DNA from: an uncultured Bdellovibrionales bacterium
GTDB lineage: Bacteria; Pseudomonadota; Alphaproteobacteria; Micavibrionales; GCA-2720935
Assembly: GCA_964351525.1 (NCBI GenBank)
Contig: CAYGOD010000002.1
Span: 230,327-294,326 of the forward strand
Direction: 5' to 3'
Length of the DNA stretch: 64,000 nucleotides
Of the stretch, positions 48,583 to 64,000 are shown piece after piece. Under the pieces are notes generated by a model. That model had not been told where the DNA came from, ran no database searches, and saw only the letters and a program-made list of their open reading frames with translations. Numbering within the stretch: position 1 is the stretch's first letter; every line of letters starts with the position of its first letter. The translations under genes and the position numbers were made by a program.

Positions 48583-48604
48583 ATTTGAAAGAAAGACGTA
48601 ATCG

Positions 48605-49600
48605 TTGGATTTATTAACTGGAGACATAACATATCTTTTTTATATCGGTGGTGCGATATTCTTTGTGATATGCGCTTATCTAGCACTTGCCCCCTCTAAT
48701 GTGCCTGACCGTTATAATGACCGCCTGAAACGCGTTCGCGCTGACGGATATGGTGCAACAGCGATGCAAAAAATATTAAAAGGGAACGCCGTTGATATTC
48801 GCAAACATGGCAAGGAAAGCAATCTTGATGCATTCTTAAAACGCATAACACCAAAGCCAGAATTATTACAATCCCGCTTGGATAGAACTGGTAAGTCCAT
48901 TCGTATTATTCATTTCTTTATTGCGACATTAATTTTAACTATATTGATTTCTTTTATTCTTATTTCTAAAAAAATTGCACCTTTTTTGGCTATTGTGGGG
49001 GCGCTTGTTCTTGCTTATAAGGTCATTGATTTTATTATCTCATTCTTGGTAAAACGACGTACTGCAAAATTCATTAAATTCTTTCCTGATGCCATTGATT
49101 TGATGGTGCGTGGTATTAAATCGGGTTTACCGTTAACGCAGACGATTCAATCAATTGGGTATGAAATGGAGGGCCCTGTTGGGGTTGAGTTCAGTCATGT
49201 CGCCAATGCTATTAAATTAGGTGTTGATATGAATGAGGCCTTGTTAGAACGTTCACGTATTTTGGATATTGCAGAGTTAAAATTCTTTTGTATTGCGCTG
49301 TCTATTCAACAAGAAACGGGTGGTAACTTAGCAGAAACTTTGTCTAATCTTTCCACAATATTGCGCAAGCGAAAACAAGTGCAAATGAAAATTAAAGCCA
49401 TGTCATCAGAGGCAAAGGCCAGCGCCATTATTATTGGTTCGCTACCTTTTATCATGTATGGCATTTTGAAAATTATGAGTCCTGAATATGTTGAACCATT
49501 ATTTAATGACCCGCGTGGTATTAAGCTGGCAATCTTTGGATTGTTTATGATCGGTCTTGGTGCATTTGTAATGAATAGAATTGTGAGCTTCGAAATATAA
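48605..49600 (+). CDS. tadB: Flp pilus platform protein TadB
   Basis: It has a TTG start and a T2SSF-like domain (FPDAIDLMVRGIKSGLPL). Confidence 0.85.
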   Translation: MDLLTGDITYLFYIGGAIFFVICAYLALAPSNVPDRYNDRLKRVRADGYGATAMQKILKGNAVDIRKHGKESNLDAFLKRITPKPELLQSRLDRTGKSIRIIHFFIATLILTILISFILISKKIAPFLAIVGALVLAYKVIDFIISFLVKRRTAKFIKFFPDAIDLMVRGIKSGLPLTQTIQSIGYEMEGPVGVEFSHVANAIKLGVDMNEALLERSRILDIAELKFFCIALSIQQETGGNLAETLSNLSTILRKRKQVQMKIKAMSSEAKASAIIIGSLPFIMYGILKIMSPEYVEPLFNDPRGIKLAIFGLFMIGLGAFVMNRIVSFEI

Positions 49601-50574
49601 TGATGTCATTTCTCACGGAATATAGATTGGAATTAGGCGCCGCCATGATGGCGTTCTTAACCGTGCTTGGTTTGTGGAAATCTATGTTACCAGCGGATCC
49701 GGTATCGAATCGTATTAATAAGATCAATGCGCGCCGTGAAGATCTTATCGCCGATCAATTATCGGCAAAACGTCTTAAAGCGGCGGATAAATTTTCTCGC
49801 GATCAAATTGGCATGAATACCGTAAAGCGTGTTGTTGAGAAATTAAAACTAATGGGTTCTGAACATGCCGAAGGTCTGCAAATGCAGTTGGCACAAGCGG
49901 GCTATCGCGGGCGCGATGCGATGATGGTCTTCCTGTTTTTTAAAGCAATTTCACCGCTTATTTTTGGTGCCTTTGGGGTGTTCGTTGCCTATAGTATATT
50001 GGATGGAAAGATCACTGGCACAATGCAATTACTCGTTTCTGTTGTTGGTGTAACGGGGGGGTATTATGCACCGCAAGTTTTTGTTAAAAACATGAAACAA
50101 AAACGCGGCGCCGCAATTCGCAAAGCAATGCCGGATGCTTTGGATTTACTGGTTATTTGTGCACAATCGGGATTAAGTTTGGACGCTAGTTTAAAACGCG
50201 TTGCCAATGAAATGGCTGAGGCTTATCCAGAACTATCAGAAGAATTTACATTGGCATCGGTTGAGTTAGGCTTTTTACCGAACAGAACAGATGCGCTGTA
50301 TAATTTAAATAAACGTGTTGATTTAGCACAAATGCGTTCTCTTATTTCAACACTAATTCAAACGGAAAAATATGGAACACCGCTTTCAAATTCTTTGAGG
50401 GTTTTAGCCGCGGAATATCGCGATGAACGCATGATGAAGGCAGAAGAAAAGGCGGCACGCTTGCCAGCCATCCTAACATTACCCATGATTATTTTTATTT
50501 TGCCGCCTTTATTTATCGTTCTGTTATCGCCAGGCCTTTTAAGCGCGATTGATAGTTTCCGTACAATGAACTAA
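49600..50574 (+). CDS. tadC: Flp pilus platform protein TadC
   Basis: The T2SSF-like domain includes MPDALDLLVICAQSGLSL. Its start overlaps the tadB stop. Confidence 0.85.
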   Translation: MMSFLTEYRLELGAAMMAFLTVLGLWKSMLPADPVSNRINKINARREDLIADQLSAKRLKAADKFSRDQIGMNTVKRVVEKLKLMGSEHAEGLQMQLAQAGYRGRDAMMVFLFFKAISPLIFGAFGVFVAYSILDGKITGTMQLLVSVVGVTGGYYAPQVFVKNMKQKRGAAIRKAMPDALDLLVICAQSGLSLDASLKRVANEMAEAYPELSEEFTLASVELGFLPNRTDALYNLNKRVDLAQMRSLISTLIQTEKYGTPLSNSLRVLAAEYRDERMMKAEEKAARLPAILTLPMIIFILPPLFIVLLSPGLLSAIDSFRTMN

Positions 50575-50578
50575 GGCT

Positions 50579-51262
50579 TTATAGACCATTAATTAATCGC
50601 AATAGCTCTAACGACGAAGCGGTCGTTTTGCCATAGGTTGCAATCAATGCATCAATATCGCCCGCGGGCATGATATTTGATAATTCTTCTCGTACTAATG
50701 TATCATCACCACTTAGAATAGTCGCTATTGCCTTATTTTGATGATAGAGGCTGTTGTCTGGCTCTAGGGCTATCACCTTATTGAATAAAGCGCGCGCGGC
50801 CTCTGTTTGCCCTGTAACGGCAAATGAAAGACCTAGATTATTCATCAATGAGATGTTCTTCGGGTCTATGTTTAGGCCATCTTGATATATTTTTTGTGCT
50901 TTTATGTGGTCGGCATTTAGATCAAGACTTACACCATACCAATTATAAAGGCGGGGGCTTTGTATATCTTGTGTCGCTTGTGATAAGTATGTGACGGCAT
51001 CATTTATGTCATACAGCATTAAGTTTTTTGCGTAGGTAACGACGACATCTTCGTTGGTTGGTTCATTTGAGGCGGCTTTTTGAAAAAAACCTAAACCGGC
51101 CTCAACATCACCCGCGGCAATCATACTATTGCCCAAGTTAATTAATTTTTGTGTGGCACTGTGGGGGGCTGTTGGCGGTGTTTTTTGTTGCTGGGTTGTC
51201 GTACAACCGCTCAACATAAAAACGATCAAAAGCGTCGAAAATAAAGATAAAAAGCGAGACAT
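50579..51262 (-). CDS. tadD: TPR-repeat lipoprotein, TadD-like
   Basis: The lipobox is MLSGCTT, followed by multiple TPR-like repeats. It is embedded in the tad locus on the opposite strand. Confidence 0.65.
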   Translation of the reverse strand: MSRFLSLFSTLLIVFMLSGCTTTQQQKTPPTAPHSATQKLINLGNSMIAAGDVEAGLGFFQKAASNEPTNEDVVVTYAKNLMLYDINDAVTYLSQATQDIQSPRLYNWYGVSLDLNADHIKAQKIYQDGLNIDPKNISLMNNLGLSFAVTGQTEAARALFNKVIALEPDNSLYHQNKAIATILSGDDTLVREELSNIMPAGDIDALIATYGKTTASSLELLRLINGL

Positions 51263-51347
51263 AATAAACCTTTTTTCAAAGTAAAAGAACTATACTGTAA
51301 GATAGACGATAATTCTGTGTATAGAAACATTATTTTTAAAAATCAAT

Positions 51348-51941
51348 ATGATGACAATAAAAAATATAGAAAAAAAACTAACCGACTTTGCCAAAAGCGA
51401 AGACGGTGTTGCCGCCGTTGAGTTCGCAATTGTGGGCAGTGTAACATTATTATCGGTTATTGCCGTGATTGAAATTTTAATGGTTCTAGCGGTTTCTATT
51501 TTAGTAGAGGGAGGCGTGCGCGAGGCTGCCCGTTTTGGTATTACAGGATCAGAAGGTAGTAGTTCCCGTATAGAGCGTATTCAAGAGATCATCGGTAATC
51601 ACACATTAGGGTTGATAGACATGAATACGGCCAGCGTTGAAACCTTCGTTTATGAGAGCTTTGCTGATATTGGATTACCAGAAGAATTTACTGATAACGC
51701 ACCGAATAACGGAATTTGGGATGAGGGCGAGGCATTCGTCGACGCCAACAGTAATGGTGTTTGGGATCCCGATCGTGGCACTGTTGGTTTAGGGGACGCC
51801 GATGAAATTGTTCTCTATCGTGTATCTTATGATCTGCCGTTTTTAACGGGATTAATGGCGCCGATTATAGGGAAGAATTTCACGCGTTTAGAAACGGTTG
51901 TTCCTGTTCGGAATGAACCATATAGAATTATTGATTCATGA
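51348..51941 (+). CDS. tadE: TadE-like pseudopilin
   Basis: The TadE N-terminal motif DGVAAVEFAIVGSVTLL is present. Confidence 0.75.
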   Translation: MMTIKNIEKKLTDFAKSEDGVAAVEFAIVGSVTLLSVIAVIEILMVLAVSILVEGGVREAARFGITGSEGSSSRIERIQEIIGNHTLGLIDMNTASVETFVYESFADIGLPEEFTDNAPNNGIWDEGEAFVDANSNGVWDPDRGTVGLGDADEIVLYRVSYDLPFLTGLMAPIIGKNFTRLETVVPVRNEPYRIIDS

Positions 51942-52501
51942 TAAAAAACATACGATCTCTCATGCATAAATTTCATCACAATCGCTCTGGATCGATTGTG
52001 ATTGAGGCGGCTATCTTCTTGCCTATGTTGGCATTATTCTTGGTTTTTTCCTTTGAAACCGCACGCTATATACTCATTAATCAGAAACTATCACGGGCTA
52101 GTGCCTCTTTAAATGATTTGATGTCACGCGTTGAAAGCCCAGAAAATAATATTGATGATTTTATTAATATTGCGGCACAAACAATGGCGCCTTTTTATAA
52201 TTCAAGTGCGATGCGTGTTTTTTCAACAATCATGACAAAACCAGAAGACAGTTTGGCGGAGATCGTATGGCAATATAATGGTGGTGGAACCTTAGCCGCA
52301 TCTAGTGCTTATGGTGTTGAGGGAAGTGTGCCAAATATGCCAGGTGATTTTACGTGGCGTGATAACGAAACGATTTTATCAACTGAGATTTATTATCAAT
52401 ACAGCACGTTCTTCAATCTACCGACATGGGAGAGCCGTACACTTTATGTGGCCTCCTTTAATAAGCCGCGCTTACAAAATTTAACTACGCTTGAAAATTA
52501 A
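51938..52501 (+). CDS. tadF: TadE/TadF-like pseudopilin
   Basis: GSIVIEAAIFLPMLALFL is present. It overlaps the tadE-like gene by 4 nt. Confidence 0.65.
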   Translation: MIKNIRSLMHKFHHNRSGSIVIEAAIFLPMLALFLVFSFETARYILINQKLSRASASLNDLMSRVESPENNIDDFINIAAQTMAPFYNSSAMRVFSTIMTKPEDSLAEIVWQYNGGGTLAASSAYGVEGSVPNMPGDFTWRDNETILSTEIYYQYSTFFNLPTWESRTLYVASFNKPRLQNLTTLEN

Positions 52502-52504
52502 GTC

Positions 52505-53449
52505 TCAATAGTAACTTCCAACCAGATTTATCGTCTGACCGTTTAAGCCTTCTTTAAAACGTGTTAAGCCGACAGCATGCTGCTGATTTACCCCCCCCAA
52601 ATCCAGATGCGCCGTACCATGATTTTCTTTCAAATATTGAAGCCCTGACCATAGTGCCAGATAGCCCGCATTTACCGATCGTCCGGCATTGGATTGCCAC
52701 GCCGCTTGGTAAGTTGCGCTGGTGTTGTGGCGCAGAAACACAGCAAAGGAAATGACTTTATTATTTTGAAGAATACGGGTAAATGTAACGGCGTTCTCTG
52801 TGGATGCTTTTTTAAGTAATAAATTTAAGAATTGTGAAGAGGGGCCATCATAATTTTTATCTCTTTTATAATAAAGCAGAAACTCTTTCGCATATTTCAG
52901 GCTATCATCATGGATAACGGTTAGGTCTGATTTTTGTGCCTTATTAAGGCTGTTGCGCCATTTCTGTTTTAGGTTTTTGCGTAAGTCCCCAGTGTTTGGT
53001 TTCAAATTGAGCAAACATGTTTGATAGGGTTTTGTATTTATGACGCTACGCCATTTGGCGTTCTCTATGAGCGGAATTAATTCTTGGTCATATATTTCAG
53101 GCATGAAAATCGTTTTGTGGAAAAGATGTCTTGGCATTAAATCGCGTAATACAAGCATAAATTCTGCTATATTTTCTGTTGTTGGTTCGATCAACCAAAT
53201 AGGACCACGATCTAACCGTGTGCGGCGATAAAATCCACCCAGACTATAGAAATCGGAGATCATAAAAAATCCGACTGTTTTTGTGTCTTTTAATAGGGTG
53301 AAAAAACGCGGCCGTAAATTATGTTTGATTAAAACGGTTTGACCGTAATAATGGCTTTGCGTGATTGGAATAAAAACGTCGCGATATTCCGTACCGCATT
53401 GTTCGATCATTGCGCTATATGTATCATGTTCATGAAATGTGATGGTCAT
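52505..53449 (-). CDS. FemAB-family / GNAT-fold peptidyl-transferase-like protein
   Basis: KNLKQKWRNSLNKAQKSDLTV and AAWQSNAGRSVNAGYLALWSGLQYLKENHGTAHLDLGG follow the FemAB-family pattern as I recall it. It lies 6 nt downstream of the NrsF-like gene. Confidence 0.45.
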   Translation of the reverse strand: MTITFHEHDTYSAMIEQCGTEYRDVFIPITQSHYYGQTVLIKHNLRPRFFTLLKDTKTVGFFMISDFYSLGGFYRRTRLDRGPIWLIEPTTENIAEFMLVLRDLMPRHLFHKTIFMPEIYDQELIPLIENAKWRSVINTKPYQTCLLNLKPNTGDLRKNLKQKWRNSLNKAQKSDLTVIHDDSLKYAKEFLLYYKRDKNYDGPSSQFLNLLLKKASTENAVTFTRILQNNKVISFAVFLRHNTSATYQAAWQSNAGRSVNAGYLALWSGLQYLKENHGTAHLDLGGVNQQHAVGLTRFKEGLNGQTINLVGSYY

Positions 53450-53455
53450 GGGATA

Positions 53456-54100
53456 TTAACGGTACAAGAAGCGGCCAATCAAATAGCCAAGTCCAGCAAG
53501 CACCAAAATGGGTAAGTAATGCCACAGAAGATTACCGTAGAGGGAGTCAATGGGGCAGGTCATGCGACAACCCATCACAGCGATTGATGATACACTGAGG
53601 AAGCACGCAAAACCAGCCATTGAAGTGTGGACGGGGCGTGCGCGTTTGACCAAATAAACCATGATAATGATCGGGAAAACACTGAGCATGGCTAGGTTTT
53701 TAACGCGGTACATAATTTCATCAAAATTTAAATAACGATCAAGATCTGCGCTGTCGCCCATGATCATGCAATATGACGATAACCCAATAATGATGAGGGT
53801 TGAAATACCCAATTGGATCTTTGTGGTCAGATCAATGGTGTCACGGGGTATAGAAAGGCGGAATGTTGCCAGTGCCGCAATAAATCCAGATAGAAATAAG
53901 GCAACCAATTGATAAAAAACGGCTTTATTTTCCATGATGGTGGCAATGTCATGACGAAACCCAAGGCCAGAAACACCGATAGCAACCAATGTATAGGCAA
54001 TGAAAATAAAGGCAATAGCGCGTCGGTTCCAACACATTGTTGGTTTCACCGGATCGGCGTCTTTGCAAAGGCTGCTTATAAAATCTTTATGATTTTCCAC
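53456..54100 (-). CDS. nrsF: NrsF-like (DUF1109) six-TM anti-sigma factor
   Basis: The N-terminus DFISSLCKDADPVKP resembles the DUF1109 start. About six TM segments and conserved-looking Cys residues (MGCRMTCP) are present. It sits directly downstream of an ECF sigma, as in the Caulobacter sigF-nrsF pair. Confidence 0.55.
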   Translation of the reverse strand: MENHKDFISSLCKDADPVKPTMCWNRRAIAFIFIAYTLVAIGVSGLGFRHDIATIMENKAVFYQLVALFLSGFIAALATFRLSIPRDTIDLTTKIQLGISTLIIIGLSSYCMIMGDSADLDRYLNFDEIMYRVKNLAMLSVFPIIIMVYLVKRARPVHTSMAGFACFLSVSSIAVMGCRMTCPIDSLYGNLLWHYLPILVLAGLGYLIGRFLYR

Positions 54101-54170: not shown

Positions 54171-54743
54171 TTATTGTGCGCTGTGTTGTTCTTTCAAATC
54201 ATGAAAGGCGCGATGGATAATAACCTTAATATTGCTCTCTGTTGTTTTATAGGTCACTGCAATATCAGCCAATTTTTCCCCCATAATTTTTGAGCGATAG
54301 ACAATATCACGCTGTTTTTTTGGTAATGTATTGAGGATTTTCTCAACATCTAACCGTGCCTCATTATCATTATTCGTTTCATCCCCGAAAAAGGTTTCAA
54401 GAGAATCTGGAATTTGTACTTCACGGTCAGATTTTTTGTATGATTTTCTTAAGGCATCCAGCATTTTAAAGCGCGCAAGACCGTATAACCAATTCTCAAA
54501 GGGCAGGTCTGGTACATAGGTGTGTCTGCTTGTATGAACAGCCATAAGCGTTTCTTGGATAATGTCATCAACATCACCATCAAAGATGCGTTTTTTGAAA
54601 TAAGTCGTTAAGAGGGGCACTGCGGCTTCTAAAACAAGTTGATAGGCTTTTTGATCGCCTTTTTGTGCGGCGCGCATATGGTCGCTTAATGTTAGTGTAT
54701 TATCACCACTATCTTGCTTGGAATTTTTTGACCATTTCATCAT
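54171..54743 (-). CDS. ECF-type sigma-70 factor (SigF-like by context)
   Basis: Region 2 is ETLMAVHTSRHTYVPDLPFENWLYGLARFKMLDALR. Region 4 is LPKKQRDIVYRSKIMGEKLADIAVTYKTTESNIKVIIHRAFHDLK. I moved the start to the MMKWSK Met, because the track start at 54803 abuts the upstream terminator hairpin (54804..54833). Confidence 0.8.
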   Translation of the reverse strand: MMKWSKNSKQDSGDNTLTLSDHMRAAQKGDQKAYQLVLEAAVPLLTTYFKKRIFDGDVDDIIQETLMAVHTSRHTYVPDLPFENWLYGLARFKMLDALRKSYKKSDREVQIPDSLETFFGDETNNDNEARLDVEKILNTLPKKQRDIVYRSKIMGEKLADIAVTYKTTESNIKVIIHRAFHDLKEQHSAQ

Positions 54744-54803
54744 GATGTTTAGAAGACTATATCTGTTGTCCAAAAGCAAGGAAGATTTAATAATCCAAGA
54801 CAC

Positions 54804-54833
54804 AAAAAAACCACCATTTTGATGGTGGTTTTT
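54804..54833 (-). terminator. Rho-independent terminator ending the 4-gene vWA/AAA+ operon
   Basis: AACCACCAT (54809..54817), loop TTTG, ATGGTGGTT (54822..54830). On the minus strand the hairpin is followed by 7 T. It lies 16 nt past the stop at 54849. Confidence 0.8.
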
Positions 54834-54848
54834 GTTAACGTATAAGCA

Positions 54849-56351
54849 TTAAGGTTTTAATTTCCGCTCACGTCTTTGTTTTAATTTTTGATGCGCACGC
54901 CTTAGTGTCTCAACATTTGTACTGGCAACTTTATCACCAAAATTATGTACGGCATCCTTTGCGTGGCTTGGTCCGAATGCATCCCAGAACTGTAACATCA
55001 GTTTCCCATTGCCCGCCCATAGGCTGGCATCAAAAAGATCGTGAATTTTAAAATCGCGCTCAATAGCATCAAGGAAGTTGTGCCCTGTACTGCTTTTTTG
55101 AGAGGCGTGTTCAAAAGAGAGGTAAATGTCATTCTGTGGATCAATTAAAGACAGAACATGGCCATGATGACCGAAGCGCACGGCTTTTGACATGAGCGTT
55201 TCATCTGTAAAGCCAGTTGTTTGATACAGGTCTTCTAACGTTATCGGCGTGCCTTTTTGCTCCATCATATCCATGATCATATCAATCTGGTCCCACGCGG
55301 CCTTTGTGCCCATGAAACAAACGCCGTGATTGCAGCCATCAAGTGTTATTGGCATGAATAAATCTTCTTTGGTGGTATTGGCGTCCAATGTAAAATCAAG
55401 CGAAGCAAATGTTTGGTCTTCTGCCTCTTCATAAACAACATTGATATCTACATCTTTGGCCTTTGATTTGTCTTGTGGCACATGTGACCAAAGCTCTAGC
55501 ATTTCATCAAGGCGCCCTGCCCAAATATCTTTATGGAAGATAGCGCCCAAATTAGTATCAGCGGCCTCTTGAATGAAGCTATTTGAATCACCATAGGGGC
55601 GTGCCAGATCTTCTATTGAAAATTCTAGACCGTGATTTCTGAAGAAAATAACCCAGCGTCTAAAGCTATTGAAATGCGCGACCATATGAAAATTTGAAAC
55701 CCCGTCATCATCTTGTGGAATCATAAGGTCTTGCGTGTCGGGATCAAGGTTAACCAAATCCAGAACTTCTTTATACAAATCTATAAGGCCTTTATCAATA
55801 ACCTCTTCTAATGATGAGCTGCGTTGATTTAGAGCCATCTCAATAATATCTAGGCGATATGATTGTCCCGCGCGTGACGCAATTTCTCTACGGACATTTG
55901 TGATGGGGATTGCAGTTCTTTGTTGTTTTGAGAGCATATAATAGACGCTCATCATTTCGGCTTCACGCCCTTCCCACAGATCTGGATTAAACACGGCACC
56001 GCGTGCCTGTGAGGCATAGCTATATTCGATAACCTTATTATTATCATTGATTTTTCTACCAAAGAAAAATCTATCAAGCTTAATGTTCGATTGTTGTAAA
56101 AGGGGAATAACTGTTTTAAATTCTTGCCAGAATTTTTGTTCTTCCAAAAGGGTGTGGATTACGCCATCAATATGATCATGACGATAGGGTGTGAAAAGAG
56201 CATCCTTTTCAATGACAACATTTTCTAGGCCGCGCACTTCTTCTAAGGCGGCTTTGTTACCGCCAACCAGATGGATTAAATTTTCTTCTTTAATACCAAT
56301 TTGAAGGCCCAGCCAGAGCTGTTGGACTTTTATGCTGTCTTTATGTGTCAT
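54849..56351 (-). CDS. Hypothetical protein, 500 aa, with internally repeated W-x-G-containing modules
   Basis: The recurring segments are VFNPDLWEGREAEMMSVYYML, IFHKDIWAGRLDEMLELWSHV and LFDASLWAGNGKLMLQFWDAF. It is the last gene of the operon. Confidence 0.6.
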   Translation of the reverse strand: MTHKDSIKVQQLWLGLQIGIKEENLIHLVGGNKAALEEVRGLENVVIEKDALFTPYRHDHIDGVIHTLLEEQKFWQEFKTVIPLLQQSNIKLDRFFFGRKINDNNKVIEYSYASQARGAVFNPDLWEGREAEMMSVYYMLSKQQRTAIPITNVRREIASRAGQSYRLDIIEMALNQRSSSLEEVIDKGLIDLYKEVLDLVNLDPDTQDLMIPQDDDGVSNFHMVAHFNSFRRWVIFFRNHGLEFSIEDLARPYGDSNSFIQEAADTNLGAIFHKDIWAGRLDEMLELWSHVPQDKSKAKDVDINVVYEEAEDQTFASLDFTLDANTTKEDLFMPITLDGCNHGVCFMGTKAAWDQIDMIMDMMEQKGTPITLEDLYQTTGFTDETLMSKAVRFGHHGHVLSLIDPQNDIYLSFEHASQKSSTGHNFLDAIERDFKIHDLFDASLWAGNGKLMLQFWDAFGPSHAKDAVHNFGDKVASTNVETLRRAHQKLKQRRERKLKP

Positions 56352-56397
56352 TCTTTTATCTTTTACGTTGTATGGGCTTTATAATATGTGTGTTTTA

Positions 56398-56748
56398 TTA
56401 ATCTTCATTTTCAAGGAAGATAATTTTTTCCGATGTTGCCTTTGCACAAATAAAGGCAAGGGCCGAAACAGGCACATATAAAGCATCAGTAATAAGAATT
56501 GTTTTTACCGTGTTGCCTTCGACGGCTTCTTTAAGCTCATTAAAGCTTTGCGGCTGAACGATGCTTTCTTCTTGGCGCAACCAGTCGCCCTGCCAATCAT
56601 TTTGTAAAAAGAAGACTTTCACCATCCCGAAAACTTTAACGGGGTTAGATGTGGCTTGTTTTAGTGCTAGCTGCGTTAAAACTTTGTTACGCTGGGTTAG
56701 GTCAACACGCGATTGTTGCTTCGTCTCCGTTTTGTTGTTTTGTGTCAT
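56398..56748 (-). CDS. Hypothetical protein, 116 aa
   Basis: It is an ORF between the AAA+ gene and the 500-aa gene on the same strand. I recognise no motif. Confidence 0.45.
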   Translation of the reverse strand: MTQNNKTETKQQSRVDLTQRNKVLTQLALKQATSNPVKVFGMVKVFFLQNDWQGDWLRQEESIVQPQSFNELKEAVEGNTVKTILITDALYVPVSALAFICAKATSEKIIFLENED

Positions 56749-56853
56749 TAGTGCTCTCCTGTTAGTACCCTGTTATTTTTATTTTTTTATTATTATTCCA
56801 TGTTTATTTATGGTGTTTTATTATCTTTTTTTATTACTTATATATAGCCAACA

Positions 56854-59658
56854 CTATATTGCGCGCTTTTGCAAGAGGCTTCCGCCCTTTTTCACAAGAT
56901 AGTTCTTGTTAAAGCATTCAATATCGTCATTGACTAATAGCTCTTCTAGAGACCTGTTCTCTTCGGCACCAAGGCCAAAAACAGATTGATTGCGCATCAA
57001 GAAAGCCAATTTAAGAGATTTGTTAAGGTCATCACTCTGTTTGCCAGCAACTTTTAACAAACCATCTCTAATTTTACGTTCTGCGTGCGGGTCTTTACGT
57101 GATACATAATTATGACGTGCAAGCATAAAGTTACGGCTTAGTGTTTTGTCATCAATTGTTCCAATAACCAGTGTTTTACCTGTTTCTCGGCTGCGTACAA
57201 TATGAACGGGGCTCTCTAGGCCATCTTCGTCTTGTACCATGACTGTGGTAATAGCGATTTTACCGCCTGTGTTTTCGGCCATTTTCACAGATTTGTCGTC
57301 GTCATGAATGGCTAATAAACCAGAATCAGAAAGACCATTATTCCAGAGCGCCCCCATGTTAATTTGACCGATAACGGGCATAACAAGTGTGCTTAGGAAC
57401 GACTTTTCATCAATCAAATCATTGTCATTAACATCTGGGGTCGTATCAATAAGGTTTCCGTCTTCATCTTCTCTGGGGGTTGCATCCAAAGATTGTCCAC
57501 TAACCAATGGCTGGCGGATAAAGGTGCGCTTGCTTGGGTTTAAGAAGATTAAATCCTGTGCATGATTGTTAAATGTTTTGGTTAAACTTTCTTCATCATC
57601 ATTGGCGGGTTTAAGATCACGCGTATCAAGCGTGTCTAAATGTGTAATTAGGCTAATAATCTGACTTTTCGGCACCAATGCATTGTCACTTTTGTCTTTA
57701 TGCGTCGGCATGGTTTCGCGGATATGGTCGGCTAATAATTTTTGAATAACATCGGCTTTTGATGATATATTATAGCCATTAAGTGGACTAATGTTAAAGC
57801 CTCTACCAAAACGATGATTTGTGTTTTTGCGGCCTTCATTCAACTCATTATCTGCTAGGCCGTGTTCACGCGCCCATGTCATAAGCTGTTCATAGGTTGC
57901 CATTTTTCCGCGTCCAAAAGTATGGTCTAGGATCTCTTGAATAATAATTTCATTCAGGCGCGTCCCATAATTAAGAGATGTCGGCTCAATTTCACCCTGT
58001 ACAAGAGAGGGTGGGGTGTCGTAACGTCCAATATCATAACCATCACTTTGTGATAGGGGTTTTGACGACGCAAAATTGTGACGAACTTTTTCAAGCCATG
58101 TAATAATCTTACGATATCCCATTGCGACTTCTTTGCGGTATTCTGGCTCATCAATTTCTTCCATGACGCGCGCATCATCAACGCCGATTAGATCAACATT
58201 ATCAGGATCCAGCATAAAGGACCACTTATGACAGAAAGAGGCAAGCTTTTTGCAATCGGTAAAGAAATGTTTCCAGTTCTTGATGAAATCAAATGATTCA
58301 TCGGGAATCATCGCAATATCTTCGTCTGACAAACCGTCTGTGCGACGATTATAAAGAAATTCACGGAAAGCTTCAGGATCAGCATCCCATTGATTGACGC
58401 CATTCTTGTACCCTGTTTTGAAAAGGGTTGAAATGGGAACGCCCGTGGCAAATTGTGTCCATGCGTGCAACCAATCATCTTCGGTTGATTTTGCAATCGT
58501 GTAGGGGTTCCAACGCTGGTTGGCTGATTCTGATAGCTCGCGTGTTGTCACGCCGTCAACAACGGCATTACCGGCGGCGGTCACGAAAAAGTTTGGCCCC
58601 ATATCTTTGCGTTTTAATGTGTATGACTTACCGCCTTTGCCTTCATTTTTAAGGGGGCTTTGAATTGTGATCTCACCTGGTCCTTCACCGCGGAAGAACT
58701 GTAAGATTGTCTGCATACAATCATCTGTACCCTCTTTGGATTTATTATATTCATCCAAAATAATCGGGCAATCTTCAGTGAACGCCTGATAGATAGGTCC
58801 TGGAACCATTTTAAGACCAAGGGCGTTTTGTCCGCCTTGATCTAATCCCTCTAGGCGACGCACGGCTTCGAGCGCTGTTTGAACGCGCTTCATGTATTCA
58901 GGGTGATCGTTATAGTCGGTATGATCGCCTTCATAACCTTCTTCTCGCCCATTGATACTGTCTGCATTGCCGATGCGATCCCATAAAAAGACAACACGGC
59001 CCGTTTCAGCATCTTCAAGATAGCCTTCACCCATGGCATTTTGTAACAGACTTTTTGAAACAGGGTTTAGTTCACCAGCGGCGGCCTTGATCTCAAGTTC
59101 TTCAAAAAAACCCTTGTCGCTGTCAAAATCAAGAACGGTTTCCCACAAAAGATCGTGTAAGTTTTTACCACCACAATCAACGAAGAAGGGTTTCTTGGTT
59201 GTGCGCAATGAGGCATGGACACCAGCAAGGAATGTTTTACCAGCACCAGGATAACCCTTAACGAACTCAATACGGTTCATGCTGTCGGGTAGGCGTTTAT
59301 TTAATCCATCGATAAAGAATTTTAACATGCTTGGTTTTGGCATATTGCGGTAGAGCTGTCCCATCACCTCTGCTTCTGGCTTATCCGAATAGATGATGGT
59401 TGGTTTATCGTCATCTTCCATGACGCTCCATTGGCGTACGGGGACGGTTTTACCATCGATGATTTTCTCATCAATTTTTAACATGGGATAGGGACGACCT
59501 GTAACGCCAAAAATCATACGCCTTAAAACGACACCATTTTTGTCAGTAATTGTTGGCGGATAGCGCTTGTCGAATTCGGCGCTAGTGCCATTGCGTGCAC
59601 CAGTATTAACATCATCTTGATGTACTGGAGTCGGATTTTTCTTGTCGTTTTTACTCAT
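56854..59658 (-). CDS. Giant AAA+ ATPase, CobS/AAA_5 (dynein/midasin-related) type, 934 aa
   Basis: Walker A is FVKGYPGAGKTFLAGV and Walker B is CPIILDEYNK. FFVTAAGN and ANQRWNPYTI parallel the CobS RLFATANT and MDRWN segments as I recall them. About 500 aa C-terminal to the ATPase module are unassigned. The ATG lies 1 nt after the vWA gene stop. Confidence 0.75.
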   Translation of the reverse strand: MSKNDKKNPTPVHQDDVNTGARNGTSAEFDKRYPPTITDKNGVVLRRMIFGVTGRPYPMLKIDEKIIDGKTVPVRQWSVMEDDDKPTIIYSDKPEAEVMGQLYRNMPKPSMLKFFIDGLNKRLPDSMNRIEFVKGYPGAGKTFLAGVHASLRTTKKPFFVDCGGKNLHDLLWETVLDFDSDKGFFEELEIKAAAGELNPVSKSLLQNAMGEGYLEDAETGRVVFLWDRIGNADSINGREEGYEGDHTDYNDHPEYMKRVQTALEAVRRLEGLDQGGQNALGLKMVPGPIYQAFTEDCPIILDEYNKSKEGTDDCMQTILQFFRGEGPGEITIQSPLKNEGKGGKSYTLKRKDMGPNFFVTAAGNAVVDGVTTRELSESANQRWNPYTIAKSTEDDWLHAWTQFATGVPISTLFKTGYKNGVNQWDADPEAFREFLYNRRTDGLSDEDIAMIPDESFDFIKNWKHFFTDCKKLASFCHKWSFMLDPDNVDLIGVDDARVMEEIDEPEYRKEVAMGYRKIITWLEKVRHNFASSKPLSQSDGYDIGRYDTPPSLVQGEIEPTSLNYGTRLNEIIIQEILDHTFGRGKMATYEQLMTWAREHGLADNELNEGRKNTNHRFGRGFNISPLNGYNISSKADVIQKLLADHIRETMPTHKDKSDNALVPKSQIISLITHLDTLDTRDLKPANDDEESLTKTFNNHAQDLIFLNPSKRTFIRQPLVSGQSLDATPREDEDGNLIDTTPDVNDNDLIDEKSFLSTLVMPVIGQINMGALWNNGLSDSGLLAIHDDDKSVKMAENTGGKIAITTVMVQDEDGLESPVHIVRSRETGKTLVIGTIDDKTLSRNFMLARHNYVSRKDPHAERKIRDGLLKVAGKQSDDLNKSLKLAFLMRNQSVFGLGAEENRSLEELLVNDDIECFNKNYLVKKGGSLLQKRAI

Positions 59659-59659
59659 T

Positions 59660-62600
59660 TTAGGGCCTCATCCTGTTATAGGCACGGCGCGCTGCGCTCT
59701 TTTTATTTTTAGCGGACTTTGCTATGAAACTTCCACTTTGTCTTATTTTTTTAAACAATAATTTCACAATTGCCAAGGGAATTTCTTGATAATTTGCCGT
59801 AGTGGTTATGTCTATTTTTTGAATTGGTCTTTTAGTTTCAATGTCTTGAGACACTTTATACATGCGTGTATTCATCGGTGTGGTGTTAATAACTGAGAAA
59901 TCAATGGTTACTTCACGCGACTGTTCGAGGAATATTTCTATAGCCTTTGTTGCCGCTGCCGAATCACTAATATCTCCATCAGAGATGACGACAATATGCG
60001 TATAACCAGAAATATCACCGGCATTTGCCTTTTTCTCGGCGAGCATTTTTGCGGTATCAATAATGGCAGGCCCCAAGTTAGTTCCAGAGTTTAGGCCCGT
60101 ACGGAAGCTTTCAAAACTTTCACCAACTTTGTTGCGTGGGTCCTTGGGTTTCGCGAACCATTTAACCGTGCTGTCACCCCACATACCGACATACAGATTA
60201 ATCCCATCAAGGCGCCTTGATGCCTCATATAATATTGCGGCTGTGGTCAGGGCTACATCAATGGGTTTTGCGCCACCCGTACCCATGTAACCATTTGAGC
60301 TCATACTGCCAGAGCCATCAATAAGAAGAACAATGTCAACGGGGGCGGGGCTCATGGATTGCTGATCATCATGAAAGCGCTCTAAATGTTTCTTTTCAAT
60401 ATTTTGACCAGTTTTTTTTCTAATAACCAACGCGCGATGTTTATCTAAATTCAGACGATCAATTTCTCCCGCTTTCGGGATAAGCGTCATTTGTTTTGAA
60501 CGAATAGTTTCACGTTTTAACTGGGCTTCCTTAAGTTTAACCATGCCTTTTTGCGCCGCGGAAATTGCAGAGCTTAATTTGGCCATTTGTTCTAAATAGC
60601 GATCCCATCCTTCATCAATAATGGGGACGTCGTCGCGACCTTTGTTCTTGCCGCCTTCTTTGGGTTTCTTCTTACTGGGCTTACCAGGCTTGTCGCTTTC
60701 TTGCCCGTCAGCGTCACTATCACCATCTCCGTCGCCATCTTCGCCGTCTTGACCATCTGCGTCTTGACCTTCTTGATCGGCTTCCATATCGGATATTTCA
60801 TCGGCTAGATCGTCGGCGCTTTGACCCTCTTGATCACCATCATCATCCAAGCCGTCGGCGCTTTCGCCCTCATTGGCCTGTTCGTCGCCATCTTGACCTT
60901 GTCCGTCATTGTCTTGGCTCATTTCTTTGGCTTGTTCTTCTGGTGTTTCAGACGGGGTGTCGACATCGGGCATGTCGCCGACATCATCCACATCGGTATT
61001 ACTGTCTCCCTGACCTTGATTTAGTTCTTGATCATAGTCATCGGATTCGCTTGTCTCGCCATTCTGATCGCTATCAGCGTCTTCTTCAGTAGCGCTTTCG
61101 CCAGATTCCGCCTCTTGACCGTCCTGATTTTCACCATCGTCTCCCTGTTCGTCAGGGTCGGGTTTAGCATTAGGATCAGGTTTAGCATTAGGATCAGGTT
61201 TAGCATTAGGATCAGGTTTAGCATTAGGATCAGGCTTAGCATTGGGATCAGGCTTAGCATTAGGATCGGGTTTAGCATTAGGATCGGGTTGCCCTTCGCC
61301 ATCTTGGCTCTCACCGTCCTGATTTTCACCGTCTTGCCCGTCACCACCTTCTTGATCGGCGCTGTCGTCTGGTTCACCGTCTTGGTTTTGTTCTTGATCT
61401 TGTTGGTCTTGGGCTTGATCCATTTCTTCTTCAAGCTTTTCCATCTCTTGCTTGATAATGGCCTCGACATGATGTTTGGCAAAATCGTCCCATAATTTTT
61501 CAATAATAGCATTGCGCTTTTTGTTGGTCGCGCCGGCTTGTGCCATGAAATAATCCAATCCATTGATCAGATCATCATAATTAGGCTTTAAAAAGCGCAG
61601 GCCGTTATTTTTATCTTGGAGCGCACCAAGAAGGTCTAAATAATCATGTTCACTTGGTGTTTGACCACCAGCTTTGCGACGTCGGCGTATTTTCTCTGGA
61701 TATAAATTAACGCCGTGCCAGCCCTCTAATGTGTCATCGAATAACCCATTTTTCTGCTGATAGCTGTATTTCATGATATCAACGAGTTTGAAGAAAGATG
61801 TAACGGCATCATCTGGCTTTGGATTGTCAGCGTCTTTTGTTTCTTTTGCGTCACGCGGTCTTAATCCGTCCAACGTAGCCGTCAGGTTATTCAAGGAGAA
61901 ATCAAAATCTTGATATGAATTGCTCGCCATATCCGAACTATTTTGATGCATAGTTGATGTTTGGGCGCCTTGTGAGAAAAGATTATAAAGTTGCCATTCT
62001 AAATTAAAGCGTCGTAGGTGTTTGTACGCTTCACGATCTAGCTTTTTTCCTTGTTTCTCAAGTGCTTTTTGTGTGTCTTTAATGCGCTTTATTTGTTTTT
62101 GTAAATAAGCCATGCGAGGCGGATATTGTTGCACCAAAAGCCCTTGACCAACTTTATCCATGATCCGTGATCTATAGTGCCCTAAGCCAGCAGTTAGCGC
62201 CTCCATAAGATCAATGCGCAGTAATTTCGACGATGGTAAATAATGTGTTCCGCCACCAATTTTACCCCAAGAGATTTTATTGCTGTCTCTGGTGGCTGTG
62301 TTGGCGTTATTCACATTGGCGTAGAGTTCTTTTTTCGCACGAATAGAGCCGGTTAATTGTTGCCATAAAATGCTTTTCGACACAGATGGCGGCGTCCCAT
62401 CTTTATTGGCTTCTAACCCCCAATTTAGGGTCATTTCAGGTGTTGTGTGAATAATGCCCAATGCGGCCGCCCAGACAAATTGCTTTTCTTGTGATGTTAA
62501 ATCTGGCGGTGTTGTTGTGCGCCCCATAAGCAAGGCTAGCTTGGCTTTCTCTATTTCTGCGCGGAGGGATTGGTTTTTTTCAAATCCTTGAAAAAGAAGA

Positions 62601-62800
62601 TCTAGATGTGCAGGGCTTAATTCTTTGCGCTTTATGAGGGTGCTTAAAACATGGCGTCTTGCGGTCATGTGGTCTTGGAAAAGGCTCTGAATATCGGGCA
62701 TATTTGGTTTTTGGCTCGGCCAAGCATACCGATTGAAAATAGTTTTAAAGCCATTTTTTATAGCTTTATTCTTTGGCTTTTTTTGATCGTTTTTTGCCAT
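59660..62800 (-). CDS. vWA (MIDAS) protein with a huge D/E/Q/G-rich acidic tract, CobT/midasin-tail-like architecture, 1046 aa
   Basis: The C-terminal MIDAS motif is VDIVLLIDGSGSMSS. Roughly 270 aa are acidic low complexity (QDQQDQEQNQDGEPDD ... DGEDGDGDGDSDADGQ) and include PDPNAK x7. The N-terminal ~440 aa are unassigned. Confidence 0.8.
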   Translation of the reverse strand: MAKNDQKKPKNKAIKNGFKTIFNRYAWPSQKPNMPDIQSLFQDHMTARRHVLSTLIKRKELSPAHLDLLFQGFEKNQSLRAEIEKAKLALLMGRTTTPPDLTSQEKQFVWAAALGIIHTTPEMTLNWGLEANKDGTPPSVSKSILWQQLTGSIRAKKELYANVNNANTATRDSNKISWGKIGGGTHYLPSSKLLRIDLMEALTAGLGHYRSRIMDKVGQGLLVQQYPPRMAYLQKQIKRIKDTQKALEKQGKKLDREAYKHLRRFNLEWQLYNLFSQGAQTSTMHQNSSDMASNSYQDFDFSLNNLTATLDGLRPRDAKETKDADNPKPDDAVTSFFKLVDIMKYSYQQKNGLFDDTLEGWHGVNLYPEKIRRRRKAGGQTPSEHDYLDLLGALQDKNNGLRFLKPNYDDLINGLDYFMAQAGATNKKRNAIIEKLWDDFAKHHVEAIIKQEMEKLEEEMDQAQDQQDQEQNQDGEPDDSADQEGGDGQDGENQDGESQDGEGQPDPNAKPDPNAKPDPNAKPDPNAKPDPNAKPDPNAKPDPNAKPDPDEQGDDGENQDGQEAESGESATEEDADSDQNGETSESDDYDQELNQGQGDSNTDVDDVGDMPDVDTPSETPEEQAKEMSQDNDGQGQDGDEQANEGESADGLDDDGDQEGQSADDLADEISDMEADQEGQDADGQDGEDGDGDGDSDADGQESDKPGKPSKKKPKEGGKNKGRDDVPIIDEGWDRYLEQMAKLSSAISAAQKGMVKLKEAQLKRETIRSKQMTLIPKAGEIDRLNLDKHRALVIRKKTGQNIEKKHLERFHDDQQSMSPAPVDIVLLIDGSGSMSSNGYMGTGGAKPIDVALTTAAILYEASRRLDGINLYVGMWGDSTVKWFAKPKDPRNKVGESFESFRTGLNSGTNLGPAIIDTAKMLAEKKANAGDISGYTHIVVISDGDISDSAAATKAIEIFLEQSREVTIDFSVINTTPMNTRMYKVSQDIETKRPIQKIDITTTANYQEIPLAIVKLLFKKIRQSGSFIAKSAKNKKSAARRAYNRMRP
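61161..61286 (-). repeat. 18-bp in-frame tandem repeat x7 (PDPNAK hexapeptide) inside the vWA gene
   Basis: On the plus strand, the GGTTTAGCATTAGGATCA unit occurs at 61161, 61179, 61197, 61215, 61233, 61251 and 61269. The first four copies are identical, the last three carry 1-2 substitutions each, and partial copies lie at both flanks. Confidence 0.95.
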
Positions 62801-63219
62801 TATGCCGTATTGCTAAAGCGCCCTGTTTTTATTTTTTTATCAAAAATTTGATCGTTTAAGCCTGTTATGAATTGAATTTATGTAATCAATGCATGAATTG
62901 AACTATATTTTTGAAATTTTATTTTATTAAAAATAGTATGCACGCGAATATTCTTCATGTCACGCATTAATTCTGAATGACATTAGGTGGCGAAAAAATA
63001 TGAAAAAACTGTTATTTTTCATAGCGATAGATTCTTCTTTAAATTAGCAAACCCACACATACGCTAGTGTTTTCTTTACCTTTTTGAGGTAAACTAAAGG
63101 TGGGAAAGTGTGTCTGTATGAACGTTGGTTTTTACGGTTTGACGTAGTGCGCTGTTTTTAAATAAGAAAATAGCATTTTGAAAAGAGAAAAAAGAAAGGT
63201 TTAAGACAAAAAAAATTAA

Positions 63220-64000
63220 ATGACTATTGCTCTTTCACCATCGATAAGAAGAAATGTTTTGAGTTTACAGCAAACTCAACGCGTTTTTGATCGCACATCT
63301 TTGCGATTATCGACGGGTAAAAAAGTTAATAGTGCACTTGATAACGCCAATTCTTTCTTTGCCTCTCAAAATCTTTTAAGCAGTGCACGTTCCTTCAATC
63401 GTATTCGCGATAATTTAGGGCAAGTGCAAGGTAATATTAGAAATGCACAAACAGGCCTTGAGGCCATAGAGCGCTCTTTACTTCAGGCGGAATCTCTAGC
63501 GCAACAAATCTTAGAGACAGAGGATTTTGGTTTTGCTGGTGGCGCAACACCGCAAACATTAAATGATTTAATCGTGGCGGACAATCCGAATGGTTATTGG
63601 CGTTTAAATGAGACTGGTGGGACAACCGCAACAAATTTGGGGTCTGGTGGGGGTATTAACGGTACCTATCAAAACGGTGCCACCAATAACGGTGCGGCCA
63701 TTATTACCAACCAGGGTGAAACAACGGGTGTCTTCAATGGCGGGAATGATCGTATTCGCATTCCCAATAGTAACCAGATCAACCTCGGTAATCAGGCAGA
63801 GCGCACGATTGAAATCACCTTTAGCACCAACCGTGTTAGTGGTCCACGTCAAATATTGTGGGAAGAGGGCGGCGGCGTTAATGCACTAAATATTTATATT
63901 GATAATGACCGTCTTTATGTGAATGGCGTCGATCAGGCCGATTGGGGACCCTTTAACATCAGTCGCGGCATTTCTGCGAATACGACATATCACGTAGCAT
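63220..64000 (+). CDS. Flagellin N-terminal domain protein fused to a LamG/concanavalin-like region (partial, continues past the window end)
   Basis: Hand translation from ATG 63220 (in-frame TAA immediately upstream) is open to the window end. LSPSIRRNVLSLQQTQRVFDRTSLRLSTGKKVNSALDNANSFFASQNL matches the alphaproteobacterial flagellin N-domain. From about residue 125, NGYWRLNETGGTTATNLGSGGGINGTYQNG ... RIRIPNSNQINLG ... TIEITF resembles Laminin_G_3 domains. It is not in the ORF track because it is edge-truncated. Confidence 0.7.
   Translation, partial: MTIALSPSIRRNVLSLQQTQRVFDRTSLRLSTGKKVNSALDNANSFFASQNLLSSARSFNRIRDNLGQVQGNIRNAQTGLEAIERSLLQAESLAQQILETEDFGFAGGATPQTLNDLIVADNPNGYWRLNETGGTTATNLGSGGGINGTYQNGATNNGAAIITNQGETTGVFNGGNDRIRIPNSNQINLGNQAERTIEITFSTNRVSGPRQILWEEGGGVNALNIYIDNDRLYVNGVDQADWGPFNISRGISANTTYHVA

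Follow-up and report, generated by a model that had tools for sequence, protein, structure and literature searches.

The four-gene operon

The window analyzed here is the whole stretch of 64,000 nucleotides (nt) of contig CAYGOD010000002.1 (positions 230,327 to 294,326), from an uncultured alphaproteobacterium of the order Micavibrionales. It contains four open reading frames (ORFs), all on the minus strand, designated here as g1, g2, g3 and g4 in the order of transcription, 5' to 3'. Their coordinates and protein lengths (1046, 934, 116 and 500 amino acids (aa)) are those reported in an earlier sequence-based note on this DNA, here called the original prediction. Its product is probably a motor-adaptor machine of the CobST/NorQD/CbbQO kind, which remodels proteins by means of ATP. 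Its parts are as follows:

59660–62800, minus strand: g1, 1046 aa, predicted CobT-like adaptor protein (ORF; hhalign against the CobT profile)
56854–59658, minus strand: g2, 934 aa, predicted AAA+ ATPase resembling the CobS motor, with additional domains (ORF; AF2 model)
56398–56748, minus strand: g3, 116 aa, fast-evolving family (ORF; same position in ~36 loci)
54849–56351, minus strand: g4, 500 aa, three ~155-aa tandem repeats (ORF; profile self-alignment)
62801–63219, minus strand: leader/promoter region of g1, 419 nt, a divergent intergenic region common to g1 and a flagellin gene
54806–54833, minus strand: intrinsic terminator-like hairpin, 12-bp stem and T-run, located after g4 and closing the operon

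The stop of g1 and the start of g2 are separated by 1 nt, and the remaining intergenic gaps are 105 nt (g2-g3) and 46 nt (g3-g4). Within the operon, only two terminator-like matches with 5-bp stems are seen, and such sites are altogether about as numerous as in shuffled sequences. One leader and one strong terminator, with none comparable inside, had been described for these four minus-strand genes, and both the ORFs and the hairpin scan agree with that description. The set g1-g2-g3-g4 is one real operon. The leader contains only two weak sigma-70-like matches (9/12), at 62963–62935 and 62930–62902, and no Rfam match is found in it (62801–63219) even at E <= 1.

The ATPase, the VWA protein and their two partners

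The window g2 protein has no match among the Pfam, NCBIfam and PADLOC models. Pfam AAA_5 is detected in just 4 of 38 members of the g2 family, with the best E-value of 1.3e-3, and sequence and profile searches of g2 against PDB chains return P-loop noise only. An exhaustive hidden Markov model (HMM) search of 1.84 billion representative proteins yields 338 proteins at E <= 1e-3, 212 of them at E <= 1e-30. The best 150 of the 338 all have E <= 1e-57 and are mostly full-length (~850–1000 aa); none of the 338 is annotated. By these counts, the g2 family is sharply set apart from ordinary MoxR/CobS ATPases.

The AF2 model of g2 (predicted local distance difference test (pLDDT) 80.9, predicted template modelling score (pTM) 0.78) matches only AAA+ proteins in PDB by Foldseek: HslU, Rea1/Mdn1, McrB, NorQ and CbbQ, at E ~1e-3 and 12–13% identity. 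These matches belong to the AAA+ group with helix-2 (H2) and pre-sensor 1 (PS1) inserts, and a hairpin of the modelled g2 at residues 329–349 would fit a PS1 insert. The domains of g2 are as follows:

59284–59553, minus strand: N-terminal beta-rich region and pre-AAA helices, residues ~36–125 (model; aligned on CobS 10–58 with an insertion)
58267–59283, minus strand: AAA+ module, residues ~126–464 (Foldseek, hhalign, motif counts)
58834–59145, minus strand: insertion of ~100 aa at the helix-2-insert position, residues ~172–275 (gap opposite CobS in hhalign)
56857–58266, minus strand: C-terminal extension, residues ~465–934, helical part preceding an alpha/beta domain

For comparison, authentic CobS and CobT genes were taken from Sinorhizobium, Sphingomonas, Cereibacter, Pandoraea, two phages and plasmids. 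The probe used to find them is an approximate CobS sequence, which matches a Shinella gene at 93% identity. In hhalign, the g2 family matches the CobS profile with a probability of 65% and an E-value of 6e-5, where CobS 10–320 is aligned on g2 38–464. The cross-controls (g2 against CobT, and g1 against CobS) stay below 1%. The colinear elements are the N-terminal FG segment, the Walker A motif, the Walker B block G.L..A...DEY[ND], LQTVLQF versus IQRVLE, the sensor-1 block T.(T)GN...DG.TT, and the arginine after sensor-1.

The motifs GAGKT and ILDEY and the 1-nt spacing between g1 and g2, which the original prediction had pointed out, are found as described. Walker A of g2 is GYPGAGKT at residues 135–142, and Walker B is ILDEY at 299–303; each is present once. 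Sensor-1 is N364, followed by the arginine R382. K141, D302, E303, N364 and R382 are invariant in 38/38 members, and g2 is therefore predicted to be an active ATPase. The insertion at ~172–275 is partly acidic and disordered, with low pLDDT at 231–252. The C-terminal extension (~465–934) is confidently modelled by AF2, and has no sequence match in Pfam, NCBIfam or PDB. On the evidence of these alignments, g2 is a highly divergent AAA+ ATPase remotely homologous to CobS.

The partner of g2 is g1, which can be divided into the following parts:

61436–62695, minus strand: N-domain, residues ~36–455; helical domain, three-stranded sheet and zincin-type active-site helix, as modelled
62144–62158, minus strand: position equivalent to HExxH, residues 215–219, DKVGQ in the window protein (alignment and counts)
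60626–61435, minus strand: acidic low-complexity linker, residues 456–725, 35% D+E and 6% K+R
61161–61290, minus strand: tandem repeat in the linker, an 18-nt unit repeated 7.2 times (95% matches by Tandem Repeats Finder)
60356–60598, minus strand: helices and shaft-like segment, residues ~735–815, aligned on CobT 343–406 (alpha0 helices, shaft)
59708–60343, minus strand: von Willebrand factor A (VWA) domain, residues ~820–1031 (Pfam VWA_2 in 35/35; hhalign to CobT_C)

Orthologues of g1 are present in about 40 loci, and the domain and motif counts refer to 35 orthologues. Pfam VWA_2 is seen in all 35 (best E 8e-9), and in the window protein at E 2e-4, which is below the cut-off. The Pfam CobT_C model gives E 0.28 for the window g1 and matches 4/35 members only, at E >= 0.017. 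The Pfam model of the CobT N-domain matches neither any of the 35 members nor the window protein. Profile comparison is more specific: hhalign aligns g1 735–1031 on CobT 343–626 with a probability of 95% and an E-value of 3.5e-8. Within this stretch are the alpha0 helices, followed by shaft and VWA domain; DGSGSM of g1 is paired with DNSGSM of CobT, and SDGD with SDGAP. The MIDAS (metal ion-dependent adhesion site) motif DGSGS is located at 828–832, and the five residues of the full site (D828, S830, S832, T907 and D941) are invariant in 35/35 orthologues. Against PDB chains, g1 matches an integrin I-domain fragment only, and its shaft/VWA part has no tblastn match at E <= 1 among phages and plasmids. 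These comparisons indicate that g1 is a CobT-type adaptor, whose C-terminal homology to CobT_C is remote.

The acidic linker is found in every g1 orthologue, with variable sequence, and corresponds to the disordered linker of CobT (10.64898/2026.07.21.739949). The tract of ~270 aa and the intact MIDAS were both noticed before, and the composition of residues 456–725 and the DGSGS motif agree. The 18-nt repeat encodes seven copies of PDPNAK. Two further ORFs, 61021–61563 on the minus strand and 61028–61495 on the plus strand, are by-products of this repeat region.

The N-domain of g1 has no sequence match in Pfam or among PDB chains. A word-indexed protein search with the single sequence or with a 35-sequence alignment is empty even though orthologues are in the collection, so that this is not evidence of absence. 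In the AF2 model (pLDDT 84, pTM 0.82), helices are followed by a sheet of three strands and this by a long helix. Foldseek finds no significant match to it in PDB; jannalysin and selecase, which are minimal zincins, are matched only locally, over 64–81 columns with a root-mean-square deviation of 2.4–4 Å. In BFVD, the top matches are phage proteins of ~650–740 aa over ~300 columns, with E-values of 0.09–1 and probabilities up to 0.97. They are named 'Cobalt chelatase CobT subunit', 'Cobalamin biosynthesis protein' and 'VWFA domain containing protein'. Local matches to SprT-like zincins are also seen in BFVD. The N-terminal domain of CobT, CobT_N, consists of a three-stranded sheet followed by helices and resembles peptidase M48C (10.64898/2026.07.21.739949).

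At the position corresponding to HExxH, 21/35 g1 orthologues have R-x4-REIGH. Only 2/35, L003 and L008, have an intact HExxH (R-x4-HELGH and R-x4-HEIGH), and the first histidine is absent in 33/35. The closest relatives of the window g1 have QVISQ and EVISK. The phage CobT-like proteins keep the intact motif, as R-x4-HEAGH and R-x4-HEVGH, and canonical CobT has R-x4-SMALR at the same position. The spacing from the arginine to the motif is identical in g1 members, phage CobT-like proteins and canonical CobT. Because this spacing is shared and HExxH is lost, the N-domain of g1 can be regarded as a zincin relic, predicted to be catalytically dead in the window organism. Model and motif together point to a CobT_N-type domain that is zincin-derived and catalytically degenerate, and the region left unassigned by the original prediction thus receives a putative assignment. 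The affinity of the two large proteins to CobS and CobT, also proposed there, is upheld by the specific profile-profile matches to authentic CobS and CobT, and the structural matches closest to the g1 N-domain are phage CobT-like proteins.

The other two proteins had been said to match nothing recognized, and this is still true for the window proteins in Pfam, NCBIfam and PADLOC; for g3 PDB sequences give no match either. g3 represents a real family that evolves fast and in which the tryptophan of a GW[EQ] motif is invariant, and an ORF at the matching position is present in ~36 loci. The internal repetition of g4 reported earlier is confirmed by profile self-alignment, which resolves three ~155-aa units with E-values of 1e-35 and 4e-16. 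Their approximate positions are as follows:

55872–56264, minus strand: g4 repeat (profile self-alignment)
55392–55799, minus strand: g4 repeat (profile self-alignment)
54882–55289, minus strand: g4 repeat (profile self-alignment)

Pfam Ank_2 is detected in 3/37 g4 members (best E 1.8e-4). The g4 profile matches only ankyrin-repeat proteins among PDB sequences, and weakly (E 0.009–2); the unit detected in g4 is ~155 aa, versus 33 residues for ankyrin repeats. g4 is probably an ankyrin-like helical repeat protein or platform. Kinship among the C-terminal half of g2, g3, g4 and the N-domain of g1 was also considered, and is rejected by pairwise hhalign probabilities below 1%.

Conservation and genomic neighbourhood

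With g2 as query, 39 clusters are found, all without annotation. A scan of one genome per species reveals 46 loci, all in metagenome-assembled genomes labelled Micavibrio sp., Rickettsiales bacterium, Rhodospirillaceae or Alphaproteobacteria. The loci were examined by tblastn and ORF extraction, and the counts for the four-gene set, hereafter the cassette, refer to loci with sufficient flanking sequence. In nearly every such locus the order and strand are constant, which amounts to ~45 species-level genomes. OZ257145.1 and GCA_027485855.1 are examples of sequences with the cassette. Across loci g1 is ~1000–1090 aa, g2 ~880–1000 aa, g3 ~103–145 aa and g4 ~490–540 aa, and overlaps of stop and start codons between cassette genes are frequent. 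The recurrence of the identical cassette in ~45 genomes places the arrangement far beyond chance. The linkage presumed by the original prediction is thus conserved, with the qualification that g4 is missing in one clade, where L034 has g3, then a 97-aa ORF, and then ZapA. The conserved core is therefore g1-g2-g3.

The usual neighbourhood is FliX, DksA, a CobD/CbiB-like gene, the cassette, inositol monophosphatase, ZapA, 6S RNA and 5-formyltetrahydrofolate (5-FTHF) cyclo-ligase. Examples of the CobD/CbiB-like gene, which is seen in 18 further loci, are as follows:

L011, 5606–6502: CobD/CbiB-like gene
L013, 5580–6464: CobD/CbiB-like gene
L036, 3192–4085: CobD/CbiB-like gene
L053, 1390–2370: CobD/CbiB-like gene

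The copies are 25–34% identical to the L053 copy, which served as the probe. The gene is missing from the clade of the window, and this clade also differs downstream, with an extracytoplasmic function (ECF) sigma factor and an NrsF anti-sigma factor. The 6S RNA is located between ZapA and the 5-FTHF cyclo-ligase at L011 16197–16353, L013 16086–16243, L016 16302–16458 and L036 13270–13427. The arrangement zapA-ssrS-ygfA is a classic one, and the 6S RNA found in it therefore confirms the housekeeping character of the neighbourhood.

No mobile-element genes adjoin the cassette in the loci examined, and no relative of g2 is found among the 2.9 million viral contigs of IMG/VR; a phage origin of the family is rejected on the latter ground. 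The fixed syntenic position, the lack of mobile-element genes and viral relatives, and divergence that follows the lineage all argue for vertical inheritance. The cassette is a vertically inherited chromosomal operon at a housekeeping position, not a mobile island.

The divergent lineage L003 carries two genes that are absent from the other loci, an OLD/ABC-like ATPase gene upstream of the cassette and a 383-aa DUF6782 gene after it:

L003, 4617–6452: AAA_15/AAA_21 ATPase gene
L003, 14731–15882: DUF6782 gene

In the window, a flagellin gene (Flagellin_N, E 3.6e-8) is divergent from the operon and continues past the window end (63220–64000, plus strand). Directly 3' of the terminator are the ECF sigma factor (54171–54803, minus strand) and the NrsF-type anti-sigma factor (53456–54100, minus strand). 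The same pair is 3' of the cassette in L001 and L002, the 48%-identical relatives. A FemAB-like gene is present at 52505–53449, and a Tad/Flp pilus set at 46897–52501, which includes a CpaF-like ATPase, two TadB/C-like T2SSF proteins, a tetratricopeptide repeat (TPR) protein and two TadE-like pseudopilins.

A probable motor-adaptor machine and its relation to known systems

MoxR-class AAA+/VWA pairs are widespread. To our knowledge, clients are known for only a handful of them: CobN, the nitric oxide reductase cNOR, Rubisco and fumarate reductase. The operon contains what defines such a pair, an ATPase of the H2/PS1-insert group adjoining a MIDAS-intact VWA protein, and the linkage recurs in ~45 genomes. 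As g1 and g2 are enlarged distant relatives of CobT and CobS accompanied by two partner proteins, the operon can be read as a remodelling machine. The remodelling or chaperone function that the original prediction offered as one of two options is thus supported. The literature searched contains no description of the g1–g4 family; a Micavibrio genome paper mentions an unrelated RTX/vWA adhesin only.

The structures of CobSTN from Brucella show how such a machine is built. CobS (328 aa) forms a hexamer, and the shaft of CobT (637 aa) is in the pore, gripped by the H2-insert hairpins (10.64898/2026.07.21.739949). CobT_N docks on extra helices of the CobS small subdomain, and the linker is disordered (10.64898/2026.07.21.739949). 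CobN is clamped between CobT_N and the MIDAS face via an armadillo-like helical-repeat domain (10.64898/2026.07.21.739949). In NorQD, a VWA finger is in the pore, and ATP drives remodelling of the NorD linker to act on the client (PMC13036017).

Each element of CobSTN has a counterpart in the cassette, and a motor-adaptor-effector scheme is proposed for this reason. In this scheme, g2 would be the motor, its single CobS-like AAA+ module being predicted to form a hexameric ring. g1 would be the adaptor: on the model of CobT and NorD, the helix/shaft part preceding its VWA domain would enter the g2 pore. The N-domain of g1 may dock on the exterior of the ring, likely at the small subdomain or the C-terminal extension of g2. 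The acidic linker would tether both ends of g1, and ATP hydrolysis would pull or twist it. The MIDAS face and the N-domain would then clamp a third component. Candidates for it are g3, which is always present, and g4, which is usually present; either could be the client or a platform recruiting an unlinked client. In this proposal, g3, g4 and the C-terminal half of g2 would stand in place of CobN, with g4 as the counterpart of the helical-repeat partner. The hexamer, the entry of the shaft, what g3 and g4 do, and a task other than corrin cobalt insertion are all inferred.

Several points weigh against this interpretation. The sequence profile of the N-domain gives no significant match to CobT in hhalign, and the link of this domain to CobT_N consists of weak Foldseek E-values (0.09–1) and a short motif. 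A closer kinship of g2 with CobS than with MoxR-class ATPases as a whole is not secure, because the probability of 65% is moderate and the comparison covered CobS and CobT profiles only. g4 is absent in one clade and so is not an obligatory part. The contacts among g1, g2, g3 and g4 are deduced from co-location only. The absence of CobN and canonical CobST covers only the window and the 10-kb flanks of ~45 loci. A possible hint of cobalamin is the gene for a CobD/CbiB-family membrane protein, which in 22 loci shares the strand of g1 and lies 300–400 nt upstream of it. This neighbour is judged more likely to reflect synteny than functional coupling to the cassette, because the block from FliX/DksA to ZapA is wholly conserved and the clade of the window lacks the gene.

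The last two points bear on the alternative that the operon encodes the true class I chelatase motor of the lineage, where g1 and g2 would be orthologues of CobT and CobS, or of a pair of the Mg- or Ni-chelatase type, that have evolved fast, with a CobN/ChlH-like subunit encoded elsewhere and g3 and g4 as lineage-specific accessories. The specific remote homology to CobS and CobT, the domain order shared with CobT and the CobD/CbiB-like neighbour are compatible with it, as is the name 'Mg-chelatase subunit ChlD' given by the source to one orthologue fragment. Yet the curated CobS, CobT and CobN models stay below threshold for all members, no CobN-sized gene is found in ~45 loci with 10-kb flanks, and neither the window nor any of six loci has a B12 riboswitch by Rfam. 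Both proteins are two to three times the size of CobT and CobS, two further genes are conserved alongside, and the CobD-like neighbour has the syntenic character discussed above. The original prediction noted no cobalamin genes in the window; indeed neither these nor canonical cobS, cobT, cobD or CobN genes are present there. Full-length homology to characterized CobS and CobT, which would have spoken for a chelatase, is not seen, with the curated models below cut-off. This alternative is unlikely, and that the cassette is not a cobaltochelatase is well supported, though not proven.

Pairs of vWA and MoxR-like proteins with additional uncharacterized genes are a known theme among conflict systems. 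A conflict-type system was the second option of the original prediction; in an anti-phage role of this kind, the pair would sense invasion and release an effector. The two g1 members with intact HExxH could supply a peptidase effector, and CobST-like pairs are common on phages and plasmids. The four proteins have no PADLOC match, however, and the cassette occupies a fixed syntenic housekeeping position in most lineages without adjoining mobile-element genes. It has no relative in the viral contigs, its divergence tracks the lineage, and the peptidase motif is dead in 33/35 members while the MIDAS and ATPase residues are invariant. A conflict system is accordingly improbable, and this half of the earlier proposal is disfavoured by synteny, PADLOC and the viral search. 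The zincin-like core of the g1 N-domain, the intact motif in L003 and L008, and the structural similarity of g2 to HslU would also fit an ATP-dependent protease, with g2 as the unfoldase and the g1 zincin domain as the peptidase. The match to HslU reflects the generic AAA+ fold and a large insertion, at 12% identity. With DKVGQ in the window g1 where HExxH would be expected, and QVISQ and EVISK in its closest relatives, the window protein cannot bind the catalytic zinc by the usual mode, and the first histidine is absent from 33/35 members. A protease is very improbable for the family as a whole, and for the window organism it is ruled out by the lost HExxH.

The remodelling machine therefore remains the preferred interpretation. 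More tentatively, the cassette might be an undescribed, ATP-driven machine for maturation that only Micavibrio-like alphaproteobacteria, predatory or epibiotic, have; it would activate a lineage-specific target or insert a metal or cofactor into it. Here a CobST-derived motor and adaptor would have gained an effector module (the C-terminal half of g2, g3 and g4) replacing CobN. Inherited vertically, the cassette seems to belong to the core traits of a group of alphaproteobacteria that has been little studied and is mostly uncultured, with Micavibrio-like predators among its members, and the client of the cassette is for that reason likely to matter for the biology of the group.

The motif series also suggests that the CobT N-domain itself is a relic of a zincin peptidase. 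HExxH is intact in phage CobT-like proteins and two g1 members; most members retain it in part, and canonical CobT and the window g1 have lost it. If this is true, the series documents a path from active zincin-VWA proteins to dead docking domains in CobT-type adaptors. The picture of a zincin turned into a docking module is testable.

Compared with known systems, the cassette shares with CobS a single AAA+ module with colinear G.xGxGK[ST], DEY[ND], sensor-1 asparagine and following arginine. It shares with CobT the order of a putatively zincin-derived N-domain, acidic disordered linker, helix/shaft and MIDAS-complete VWA domain, and the motor and adaptor genes are adjacent in both. CobS, of ~330 aa, consists of the AAA+ large and small subdomains only, with H2-insert and PS1-insert hairpins and no pre-sensor 2 (PS2) insert. 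The large size of both proteins was already stressed in the original prediction, and it holds: g2 has 934 aa versus 328 aa (10.64898/2026.07.21.739949), with the ~100-aa insertion and a C-terminal extension of ~470 aa, and g1 has 1046 aa versus 637 aa (10.64898/2026.07.21.739949), with an N-domain about twice as large and a linker of ~270 aa versus ~90 aa. No Pfam or NCBIfam model of CobS or CobT is above cut-off for g1 or g2 members. Canonical alphaproteobacterial cobS-cobT sits in a BolA/J-protein context, whereas the loci here have neither this context nor CobN, and have g3 and g4 conserved in addition.

Pairs similar to CobS/CobT on phages and plasmids (Rhizobium phage RHph_X66, phage T5S1 and IncC plasmids) are also larger than the canonical ones and lie in non-cobalamin contexts. 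The vWA-first order, once taken as distinguishing, is not diagnostic because RHph_X66 also has CobT before CobS. The phage CobT-like N-domains are the best structural matches of the g1 N-domain, and the R-x4-HExGH motif is common to them. Unlike g1/g2, these pairs are easily found with the CobS probe (27–41% identity), keep HExxH intact, adjoin replication genes and have no equivalents of g3 and g4. They are located at L057 3302–7108, L058 1152–4891, L064 3168–4391 and L059 3977–5864, near genes for a sigma factor, DnaE and primase, and near ssb/bet/exo on an IncC plasmid. The intact HExxH of two phage CobT-like proteins suggests active zincin-VWA adaptors outside cobalamin synthesis.

NorQ-NorD and CbbQ-CbbO share the working principle, and the AAA+ folds of NorQ and CbbQ are among the best matches of g2. 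NorQ and CbbQ are ~260–270 aa and recognized by Pfam AAA_5, whereas g2 is larger and escapes family models; the clients cNOR and Rubisco are encoded nearby, and the cassette has no known linked client gene. Midasin/Rea1 has the same order of AAA+, D/E-rich tract and MIDAS, as noted in the original prediction, and Rea1 modules are among the structural matches of g2. The order of parts stands, and the comparison is an analogy only: midasin is one polypeptide with six AAA+ modules, while here there is one module, MIDAS is on a separate gene, and the acidic tract is within the MIDAS protein, after the zincin-like domain.

The best reading is that the cassette works like CobST, NorQD and CbbQO and yet lies outside CobS and CobT proper, since curated cut-offs, size and the CobN/cobalamin context all fail in the loci examined. 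Its conserved parts beyond CobST are g3, g4 and the C-terminal half of g2. The cassette is a sharply isolated branch with the same motor-adaptor logic and new hardware, a threefold larger ATPase and two unrecognized partners.

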